A stretch of DNA of 64,000 nucleotides, from the IMG/VR virus record IMGVR_UViG_3300002835_000068, positions 1 through 64,000 of that record, one strand, 5' to 3'. The notes beneath the pieces were generated by a model, which worked only from the letters and a program-made list of their open reading frames with translations, searched no databases and had not been told where the DNA came from. This document shows positions 16,574 to 18,178 of the stretch, piece by piece. Each line of letters starts with the position of its first letter. The first letter of the stretch is position 1. The stretch comes from a virus. A program made the translations under genes and the position numbers.

Positions 16574-18178
16574 ATGTCAAAACAAGCAGGTAGAATGAGC
16601 CAGTCGTCAAACGACTTCCTGGCTCCATACGCACCAACCATAGGAACAGCAACAGATGTTGGAACTAACCGTCCATATAACAATGGTGCAGCGACAGTAA
16701 CATTTACTGCCACTGGTCCAAACGCAGCAGATTCTTTTACAGTTTATGCTGTTGAAGATCCAACCAAAACTGCAACTGGTGCATCATCTCCTTTAACAGT
16801 TACTGGTCTTTCATCAGCAACCAACTATACATTTAAGGTATACGGAACAAACACAGCAGGTGGCCGTGGATCTGACTCAGCAGCATCAAATCAGATCACA
16901 GCAACAACTGTTCCACAGGCACCATCTTTAGGAGCAATAACAGTCTCATGCTCTGCTCGTGCCTTGAATGATGGACTTGTAACAGTTGCAATGACAGCAA
17001 ATGCAACTGGAGGAAAAGCAATCTCTGGATACTATGCAGTTTCTAATGGTGGACAAAATGCTTCTTCAGCATCCTCTCCAGTTAGCGTTACTGGTTTATT
17101 GTCAGCAACAAACTATACTTTCCAGGGAAGAGTTTCTAATGCAAATGGAAACTCTGAACTAACCGCTTCTTCTTCTGCAGTAACTGTAACAACAGTTCCA
17201 GGACAGGTTACAGCAGTTTCAGCATCATCACCTTCAGCAGGAGTAGACAGAATTACCTGGACAGCACCATCAAACGGTGGTTCAGCAATTACTCAATACA
17301 ACTGGGTTTCATCTGATGGAAAATCTGGAAGCACAGCAGCAACTTCTATTGATATTTCTCAAGAACAGGGAACTGCACAGACTTATACTGTTACTGCAGT
17401 TAATGCTTGTGGAGCAGGGCCAGCATCTGGTGCTTCAAATAGCATAACAACAACATTTTCATTCGTCCCATTCGGAGTGTTTGGATTCTCCCCATTCGGA
17501 GTGTTCTCGTTCTCTCCATTTGGAGTGTTCTCGTTCTCTCCATTTGGTTTCTCCCCATTCGGAGTGTTCGGTTTCTCCCCATTCGGATTCTCACCATTCG
17601 GATTCTCTCCGTTTGGATTCTCACCATTCGGATTCTCACCGTTCTCATTCTCACCGTCTGGATTCAGTTTCACACCACGCTTCATGGCATCGCTTGCACC
17701 AATGACAAAGGTCAGAATGGCAGACGGATCTATGAAGGCTGCAGAAGACGTTTACGTCGGAGATGTACTAATGTCTGTAGAACTTCCAGAGTTTGCAAAC
17801 TCTTACACAACAGAAGAATTGATGGCTTGGACATCAACGCAAGATATTGCAGACCTAACGCTAACTACCACAACAGTTAATAAAGTAACGATACATCCTT
17901 CTGATAAAGTAATTAGCGTTAATGAAGATGTCTTCTCTCCAAACCACCTTATATTGATAAAGAGAGACGCTACGGTATTCATGTGTAGAGCAGACAACCT
18001 AACTCCTACAGACCTAATTTGGGATTATTCTACCAATGGATGGGCAGAAATATCAGTACTCGAAATGCATGATTATGATCACACAGTTATTACTATTAAC
18101 TGTGAGCCTAACGACCTATTCTTTACACATAGTGCACTAACGCACGACGGTAACGAATGGAACCCAAATCAAGCATAA
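16574..18178 (+). CDS. Triple fibronectin type III protein with (FSPFG)n tract and C-terminal Hint domain
   Basis: FN3 motifs (VTGL..ATNYTF.V...N..G), Phe/Pro/Gly repeats, Hint domain. Confidence 0.85.
   Translation: MSKQAGRMSQSSNDFLAPYAPTIGTATDVGTNRPYNNGAATVTFTATGPNAADSFTVYAVEDPTKTATGASSPLTVTGLSSATNYTFKVYGTNTAGGRGSDSAASNQITATTVPQAPSLGAITVSCSARALNDGLVTVAMTANATGGKAISGYYAVSNGGQNASSASSPVSVTGLLSATNYTFQGRVSNANGNSELTASSSAVTVTTVPGQVTAVSASSPSAGVDRITWTAPSNGGSAITQYNWVSSDGKSGSTAATSIDISQEQGTAQTYTVTAVNACGAGPASGASNSITTTFSFVPFGVFGFSPFGVFSFSPFGVFSFSPFGFSPFGVFGFSPFGFSPFGFSPFGFSPFGFSPFSFSPSGFSFTPRFMASLAPMTKVRMADGSMKAAEDVYVGDVLMSVELPEFANSYTTEELMAWTSTQDIADLTLTTTTVNKVTIHPSDKVISVNEDVFSPNHLILIKRDATVFMCRADNLTPTDLIWDYSTNGWAEISVLEMHDYDHTVITINCEPNDLFFTHSALTHDGNEWNPNQA
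17456..17689 (+). repeat. Coding repeat tract: 8 exact FSPFG plus variants
   Basis: FSFVPFGVFGFSPFG...FSPFSFSPSGFSFTPRFMA. Confidence 0.95.
17690..18148 (+). other. Hint domain copy 2, 153 aa
   Basis: [13 protein letters not shown]...SPNH...LFFTHSALTHD; colinear with copy 1. Confidence 0.85.

Follow-up and report, generated by a model that had tools for sequence, protein, structure and literature searches.

A Phe-rich tract capped by a Hint domain in a phage tail-fibre module: a candidate sticky tail that self-removal of its cap would expose

Why would a phage protein carry 78 consecutive residues made almost only of phenylalanine, serine, proline, glycine and valine, and what becomes of them in the mature protein? 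The question is raised by a 534-aa protein encoded in the virus record IMGVR_UViG_3300002835_000068 (103,272 bp; 38% G+C), the first 64 kb of which (positions 1 to 64,000) are hereafter called the window. Residues 295-372 of this protein (window positions 17456-17689, plus strand) form a Phe-rich tract that lies between three FN3-like domains and a C-terminal domain of the Hint (intein/BIL) type. The reading that we favor, with confidence and doubt about evenly balanced, is that the tract represents a sticky aromatic tail that tolerates changes of sequence and serves adhesion or self-association; it would become exposed when the Hint domain removes itself.

An aromatic tract maintained at the protein level

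The tract is composed of 29 Phe, 16 Ser, 12 Pro, 12 Gly and 5 Val residues, plus one each of Thr, Arg, Met and Ala, and Phe alone accounts for 37% of it. It reads FSFVPFGVFGFSPFG...FSPSGFSFTPRFMA, ends in ...GFSFTPRFMA, and is built from the units FSPFG and VF[SG]FSPFG, the former being present in eight exact copies. Its sole charged residue, Arg369, is located four residues ahead of Ser373, the first residue of the Hint domain, and its mean Kyte-Doolittle hydropathy is +0.82. The coordinates and composition thus agree with the original prediction, made from the DNA alone, of an F/S/P/G/V tract with eight FSPFG units that is uncharged up to a linker Arg. Two minus-strand open reading frames (ORFs) running across the tract (17383-17685 and 17400-17654) were rejected as genes, being mirror images of the repeat. 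This is the only tract of such kind in the whole 103-kb genome. A search of the tract in the ESM Atlas returned no usable match, and no repeat or pentapeptide model of Pfam matched the whole protein at E≤0.1.

Tandem Repeats Finder detected periods of 15, 24, 39 and 45 nt in the DNA of the tract with matches of 81-90%, so the DNA copies of the unit are not identical, and the codons are mixed (five for Ser, two for Pro and two for Gly). Against L001, the closest relative fetched (84% identical overall), 80 codons of the tract region differ by 26 synonymous substitutions and a single non-synonymous one. This ratio of 26:1 indicates that the peptide is maintained and not the DNA, as had been postulated from the mixed codons, and it gives direct evidence of strong purifying selection acting on the tract. 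The codon choice itself is skewed: TTC is used for 24 of the 29 Phe residues, compared with 20 of 60 in the neighbouring genes taken as background, and GTG for 4 of the 5 Val residues, compared with 6 of 136; TCG, TCC and CCG are likewise enriched relative to the neighbouring genes. The skew could stem from the avoidance of T-runs and slippage, from a tuning of translation across the 29 Phe codons, or from the cassette being of foreign origin.

More than 1900 metagenomic homologs were found at E≤1e-3 in a search of 5.8 billion proteins, and an uncharged aromatic tract occupies the same place in 119 of the 120 best. It is thus kept in the family, instead of being absent or compositionally random in homologs, the counter-case named with the original prediction; its unit and length vary. 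The units are FSPFG, FTPFG, FGAFGA and SFVPY in homologs, extending to FFPP and YSFTP in wider relatives, the length lies mostly at 50-100 aa (range ∼33-160 aa), and the copy number drifts even among close relatives. What stays constant is an aromatic residue every 2-3 positions with small residues between and no charge. That the unit varies while the make-up stays points to a biophysical constraint rather than a constraint on a motif. Tract and Hint domain are swapped between phages whose ribonucleotide reductases are 97-99% identical, as are the fibre genes upstream, and this exchange, resembling that of receptor-binding fibre genes, fits a host-range-like mode of evolution. In the INPHARED phage collection no close relative was found by DNA or protein. 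The FGAFGA-type tracts of six loci (L011, L035, L146, L148, L154 and L156) are interrupted by (P-V/T-P)n and a ∼45-aa Cys-rich insert, for example ...CCQDDDAGFCSG...C...C...C..., which echoes the Cys modules of a (VTP)n fibre of the window described below. A collagen-like reading of the FGAFGA variants was discarded, as about one quarter of their triplets have Ala or Ser in the place of Gly.

The Hint domain and the predicted mature end

A profile of 29 C-terminal domains of the family (A4) matches, among PDB structures, the Pho RadA intein (E 4e-6), the gp41-1 intein (3e-5) and the BIL domain 2LWY (1.7e-3), and the Pfam model Intein_splicing matches 9 of the 29 members (best E 2.6e-6). Besides this profile similarity, two further hallmarks of the Hint superfamily are in place, a nucleophile at position 1 and block B. 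Position 1 is Ser in 143 and Cys in 73 domains (together 216 of 218), block B has the form [S/T]xxH with Ser (170) or Thr (45) in first position and its His kept in 181 of the 218, and 203 retain the block-F Asp. The catalytic residues at the two ends of the domain are strictly coupled: domains starting with Cys end in His-Asn (69 of 73), usually with just one Lys before the stop codon, and domains starting with Ser end in His-Asp, Phe-Asp or Tyr-Asp and a short tail, which suggests two mechanistic subtypes within this family. The copy of the window is of the Ser type (Ser373, S455-P-N-H458, T-H524-D525). Where a canonical splicing intein has His-Asn followed by a Cys, Ser or Thr as C-extein residue, this copy finishes in T-H524-D525-GNEWNPNQA with no domain downstream. 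Since Asp525 stands in the place of the intein Asn and no C-extein follows, splicing is not expected and only N-terminal cleavage would take place. Type-B BIL and Hedgehog-C domains perform N-terminal cleavage only.

The combination of tract and Hint domain is widespread. The Hint profile, run against 1.84 billion cluster representatives, gave 2501 matches, with 875 reaching E≤1e-10. The domain lies at the C-terminus of nearly all full-length matches, and in most of these it comes after an uncharged tract in which aromatic residues, Pro or Gly abound (FFPP, FFAPP, YSFTP, poly-Pro).

Homologs that have no Hint domain indicate what the mature protein may look like. In 26 of the 120 best homologs the Hint domain is absent and the protein stops at the tract. 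For L006, L009/L010, L014/L015, L016 and L018 this is a genuine stop, with the next gene beginning 65-129 bp later, and the natural stop falls within ∼2 residues of the predicted cut (...FSPFSPGGPTFSAAY-stop vs. ...FSPFSPGGFGFTPIFMR followed by the Hint Ser). On the FN3 tree, at least five gains or losses of the Hint domain are needed. Given that the Hint-less homologs have the tract as their C-terminus, the mature state is likely one with an exposed tail, and in the Hint-bearing forms the tract is most likely the mature C-terminus after self-removal of the Hint domain. The proposal that Hint cleavage leaves the tract as an exposed C-terminus thereby gains support, on the level of sequence, from the conserved nucleophile and block-B His as well as from the Hint-less homologs.

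The junction and the Hint domain are a portable cassette that ends a different, fibre-like protein in the same window. This second cassette (Table 1) is 73% identical over 167-176 aa to positions 17672-18172 (tblastn), and its protein ends in the same GGFSFTPxFMx sequence before the Ser of its Hint domain. The cassette seems to have been copied together with ∼10 residues of N-terminal flank. In the second protein it follows a ∼400-aa (VTP)n stalk with four C-x10/11-C-x2-C...C modules.

Possible roles of the tail and the neighbouring oxygenase

If the favored reading is correct, the protein would be synthesized in a precursor form that carries the Hint domain as a C-terminal pro-domain. Ser373 would attack the carbonyl of Ala372 in an N-to-O acyl shift, aided by His458 of block B and the block-F Asp, the resulting ester would be hydrolysed, the 162-aa Hint domain would leave, and the mature protein would end with ...GFSFTPRFMA. 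The tail could then act through its bulk chemistry (closely spaced aromatic rings, small residues, no charge) and not through an exact sequence, either by adhering to a hydrophobic or sugar-rich host surface or by bundling with its own copies or a partner fibre, with the FN3 domains forming the arm. The Hint cap would probably keep the aggregation-prone tail soluble until assembly. A variant to which we give a slim chance is that the Hint domain stays on the virion as a latent ester (a thioester in the Cys-type forms) and, on contact, passes the tail on not to water but to another nucleophile, for example an amine of the host cell wall or a residue of another phage protein. The fibre would then be fixed covalently, as a phage counterpart of the cholesterol transfer by Hedgehog.

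Several observations weigh against the sticky tail. The virion location of the FN3/tract protein is deduced solely from the position of its gene, and the Hint domain of the window, searched on its own, gives weak scores (E 0.005-0.025; Hom_end_hint E 0.005). An N-terminal attachment domain is all but lacking, so that the tail could instead be the part that anchors the protein to the virion, and with a Pro or Gly every five residues the tract could adopt a regular fibrous fold and not be disordered and sticky. An anchor of this kind would hold the FN3 arm in repeated pockets on tail, fibre or capsid, with the adhesive FN3 domains pointing outward. Only ∼17 residues precede the first FN3 domain, and these lack the conserved N-terminal attachment motif of three neighbouring fibre genes; moreover, decoration proteins of the T4 Hoc type have Ig-like domains and a C-terminal capsid-binding part. 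However, the tract class switches between phages with near-identical core genes, which a conserved virion pocket would not easily tolerate, and we judge the anchor distinctly improbable. Alternatively, the tract might fold into a β-spiral, β-solenoid or trimeric shaft with a Phe core, for oligomerization or as a stiff spacer, the Hint domain acting like the self-cleaving intramolecular chaperones of other fibres. The strict periodicity, with Pro/Gly turns every 5 or 8 residues, the length of ∼50-100 aa in most homologs and the position in a fibre module, paralleling the self-cleaving chaperone domains of tail spikes (Peptidase S74), are all in line with such a fold. Yet a single tract combines periods of 3, 5 and 8 residues, and these vary among close relatives, which is hard to reconcile with one regular fold; the drifting copy number and the lack of a repeat or pentapeptide match in Pfam speak in the same direction, and we regard a regular fold as unlikely.

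Another group of explanations involves the gene next to the tract gene, for which an oxygenase had been predicted. Its 232-aa product has no match in Pfam, and its sequence profile has none in the PDB. An AlphaFold2 model (mean predicted local distance difference test score, pLDDT, 82.8) shows a double-stranded β-helix, and the closest folds (VIA-align) are 3bvc_A (Z 14.4; root-mean-square deviation 3.1 over 173 residues) and 2rg4_A (Z 14.0), both uncharacterized marine proteins, followed by PHD1 and PHD2 (Z 13-13.5; PHD1 13.5); the range over PHD and the prolyl 4-hydroxylase (P4H) of P. putida is Z 11.7-13.5. The model and the fold search thus agree with a 2-oxoglutarate (2OG)-Fe(II)-oxygenase fold. 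Residues H143, H145, H154, H191, H193, R204 and T206 are invariant in alignment A1, and candidates are H143-D144-H145 and H191/H193 for the iron triad and R204-x-T206 for binding of 2OG; the spacing in the putative metal site is H-D-H and not HxD. The tract could accordingly be a substrate of this oxygenase, and perhaps of other 2OG oxygenases and glycosyltransferases, that hydroxylate Pro (or Phe/Ser) in the context x-Pro-Phe-Gly to give an extensin- or collagen-like tailored adhesive tail.

We scored the oxygenase gene within 8 kb downstream of the tract in 74 loci with enough flanking sequence. Every FSPF-type (43 of 43) and FTPF-type (13 of 13) tract has it there, and no FGAF-type tract does (0 of 18). 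The FGAF label changes at least seven times on well-supported branches of the FN3 tree (eight times on the best tree), the nearest FN3 relative of the window's protein, L003, belonging to the other tract class, and the adjacency survives loss of the Hint domain. Among seven independent pairs five are concordant, none is discordant and two are uninformative (sign test, p = 0.06). However, in G002 (90% complete) and G011 (89%), the two most complete genomes with a Pro-poor tract of the FGAF type, over 50 kb separate the oxygenase gene from that of the tract; in G002 the oxygenase gene has a gapX paralog and P4H-type genes as neighbours. Its presence is therefore independent of tract class, which speaks against a dedicated partner. 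The slot after the tract gene is taken in all FGAFGA-type loci by gapX, a family of 237-248 aa (e.g., L019:9733-10452 and L003:6336-7079) with the motifs RIHPTW...HQ...DxDxY..DG.LSF, a weak match to DUF6065 (E 1.4e-3) and a poor AlphaFold model (pLDDT 47). Its profile bears no relation to that of the oxygenase (hhalign probability 0.1%), and yet it co-occurs with the oxygenase elsewhere. In the window's own genome gapX and a P4H cluster are found at 75-79 kb (two tandem gapX paralogs at G000 75333-76777, outside the window). Tract, Hint domain and next gene form a block between conserved flanks, the FN3 part and the reductase (85-99% identical), at which recombination would move them together, and this physical linkage explains the adjacency pattern. 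The covariation expected in the original prediction therefore stands for adjacency (56 of 56 vs. 0 of 18) and fails for presence, as adjacency covaries with tract class and oxygenase presence does not. In nine further contigs, eight with Pro-poor tracts and one with an unclassified tract, the oxygenase search came back empty, which shows nothing, as these contigs are only 24-72% complete.

We consider modification of the tract by the oxygenase doubtful. In its favor are the fold, with the HIF and bacterial prolyl hydroxylases as nearest counterparts (Z 12-14.4), the strict adjacency and further P4H-type genes at 21169-22303; against it stand the genomes with a distant oxygenase, the co-transfer by linkage, the behaviour of gapX and the non-canonical metal residues. 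It would be compatible with the sticky tail as an added layer. A dedicated tailoring enzyme is bounded by the same data, the oxygenase accompanying the tract by position only. We give scarcely any credence to two last possibilities, a multi-core precursor of the type of ribosomally synthesized and post-translationally modified peptides (RiPPs) that releases modified FSPFG units, which had been part of the original prediction, and a functionless linker generated by slippage. Repeated units do adjoin an oxygenase and repeat DNA is prone to slippage. Instead of a short leader-core peptide with its own protease and exporter, however, we find a 534-aa protein in a structural module, with the tract fused to three FN3 domains and fibre genes, an oxygenase-fold gene and a reductase as neighbours, and nothing resembling a processing protease or exporter was seen nearby. 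The linker, and any reading of the tract as junk, is excluded by the 26:1 ratio together with conservation across more than 1900 homologs.

Genomic setting, host and comparison with known systems

The tract gene is the last of a tail-fibre module (Table 1). The upstream genes starting at 12871, 14499 and 15006 match tail-fibre families, and on the 3′ side the unannotated oxygenase-fold gene is followed by genes for ribonucleotide reductase, portal, protease and capsid protein. The order of fibre genes, tract gene, one variable gene and reductase is conserved in 80 IMG/VR loci. The first FN3 domain is matched by the Pfam model fn3 at residues 39-103 (E 1.3e-9); domains 2 and 3 were called from sequence pattern and alignment A3, and Pfam gives a weak Ig-like match at residues 135-199 and a weak Hint match at residues 377-401.

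Table 1. Features of the tract gene and its surroundings, in window coordinates.
Feature	Position	Strand	Basis
FN3/Phe-rich tract/Hint protein, 534 aa, last gene of tail-fibre module	16574..18178	+	ORF; >1900 homologs; synteny in 80 IMG/VR loci
∼17-aa N-terminal leader, three FN3-like domains (residues ∼20-291) and conserved VTTTFSF entry motif	16574..17455	+	Pfam, sequence pattern, alignment A3
Phe/Ser/Pro/Gly/Val tract	17456..17689	+	Composition, Tandem Repeats Finder, L001 codon comparison; in 119/120 best homologs
C-terminal Hint (intein/BIL-type) domain, residues 373-534, 162 aa	17690..18175	+	Profile A4 vs PDB, Pfam
Ser373, predicted nucleophile	17690-17692	+	Hint block A
Block B, S455-P-N-H458	17936-17947	+	Hint domain
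Block F, NCEPND	18098-18115	+	Hint domain
T-H524-D525 replacing His-Asn	18137-18151	+	Hint domain
Predicted 2OG-Fe(II)-oxygenase-fold protein ("oxy"), 232 aa	18234..18932	+	Alignment A1, AlphaFold2 model, fold search
Two P4H-type 2OG oxygenase genes with overlapping ends, just after the ribonucleotide reductase gene	21169..22303	+	Pfam 2OG-FeII_Oxy_3; context only
Second cassette-bearing protein: fibre-like N-terminus, (VTP)n stalk, four-Cys modules, junction, Hint from 7488	5379..7976	+	Translation, tblastn

Contigs from two metatranscriptome libraries cover the tract gene. A lake contig (X19) is identical over 258 nt across the junction of tract and Hint domain (window 17547-17804), and estuary contigs (X17) are 90-95% alike over window 16643-18932, extending into the oxygenase gene. 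As carry-over of DNA into such libraries cannot be excluded, we do not claim transcription from them.

A WhiB-family gene (G000 85602-85775, outside the window) was identified with E 5.5e-12, above the curated cut-off, the capsid protein shares 44% identity with its counterparts in Streptomyces siphophages, and the stretch recurs nearly intact in lake and freshwater metagenomes from 2016, 2020 and 2024. Taken together, this is most likely a persistent freshwater actinophage, and the uncultured virus is probably a siphophage of a freshwater actinobacterium; WhiB, the G+C content of 38% and the lake habitat suggest a host among the low-GC freshwater Actinobacteria. Insertion of the tail into an outer membrane was dropped as a leading idea, since WhiB and the actinophage-like capsid suggest a host that has none. 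The genome further encodes at least five P4H-type 2OG oxygenases (PF13640), many for a 103-kb phage, at window 21169-22303 (2OG-FeII_Oxy_3 with E 8e-5, below the curated cut-off, for 21169-21798 and E 3.4e-11 for 21794-22300) and at G000 77759-79016 and 91822-92055. A GT61-cupin fusion is encoded at 8926-10527.

Phage fibres decide host range, and the architecture described here, a structural domain with a charge-free aromatic tail and a Hint cap, is common and yet absent from the annotation of Pfam and PHROGs; Hint-capped fibre proteins of phages did not turn up in our literature search. The architecture is carried by persistent lake phages, whose hosts are probably freshwater Actinobacteria of high abundance. 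If the favored reading is correct, Hint chemistry would represent a new way of maturing phage appendages, and the tail a natural aromatic low-complexity "glue" outside cells, of relevance for adhesion, phase behaviour and protein engineering.

Several known systems offer parallels. The neighbouring oxygenase-fold protein may be compared with the P4Hs that act on repeat proteins (HIF PHD1/2, the Pseudomonas P4H and the P4H of chlorovirus PBCV-1). Its predicted fold matches PHD1/PHD2 and the P. putida P4H, and 12 prolines recur within the units of the tract, but the phage protein has no family match on the sequence level and is not tied to the tract by presence. With FG nucleoporins, to which the original prediction had likened the tract, and with segments of the LARKS type (low-complexity aromatic-rich kinked segments), it shares Phe-Gly dipeptides, an almost complete lack of charge and a plausible aromatic self-association. 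The likeness holds for composition and not for architecture: FG nucleoporins have spacers of ∼10-20 residues, whereas the tract has a Phe every 2-3 residues (29 of 78, a density several-fold higher) and no hydrophilic spacers; there is no homology, and the setting of the tract is extracellular and viral.

The Peptidase S74 domains are C-terminal, self-cleaving intramolecular chaperones of phage tail spikes and fibres that drive trimer folding of a structured shaft. The Hint domain may be comparable as a C-terminal domain of a phage fibre protein that would remove itself during maturation; fold and chemistry are unrelated (no Pfam S74 match), and it is preceded by a low-complexity aromatic tract. 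With the BIL and Hedgehog-C domains (e.g., the Clostridium thermocellum BIL, PDB 2LWY) it shares the Ser/Cys nucleophile and block-B His of a Hint domain, and, like them, it is not inserted in a conserved host protein and carries no homing endonuclease. As no nucleophile follows its C-terminus, it is expected to cleave and not to splice. It differs from both by its setting in a phage fibre module and, in the copy of the window, by Ser1, SxxH and His-Asp instead of Cys1, TxxH and His-Asn. As in Hedgehog, the Hint domain stands at the very C-terminus and its cleavage would leave a hydrophobic end on the N-terminal part; in the phage protein, which has no sterol-recognition region, this end would be an encoded Phe-rich peptide rather than an added cholesterol.

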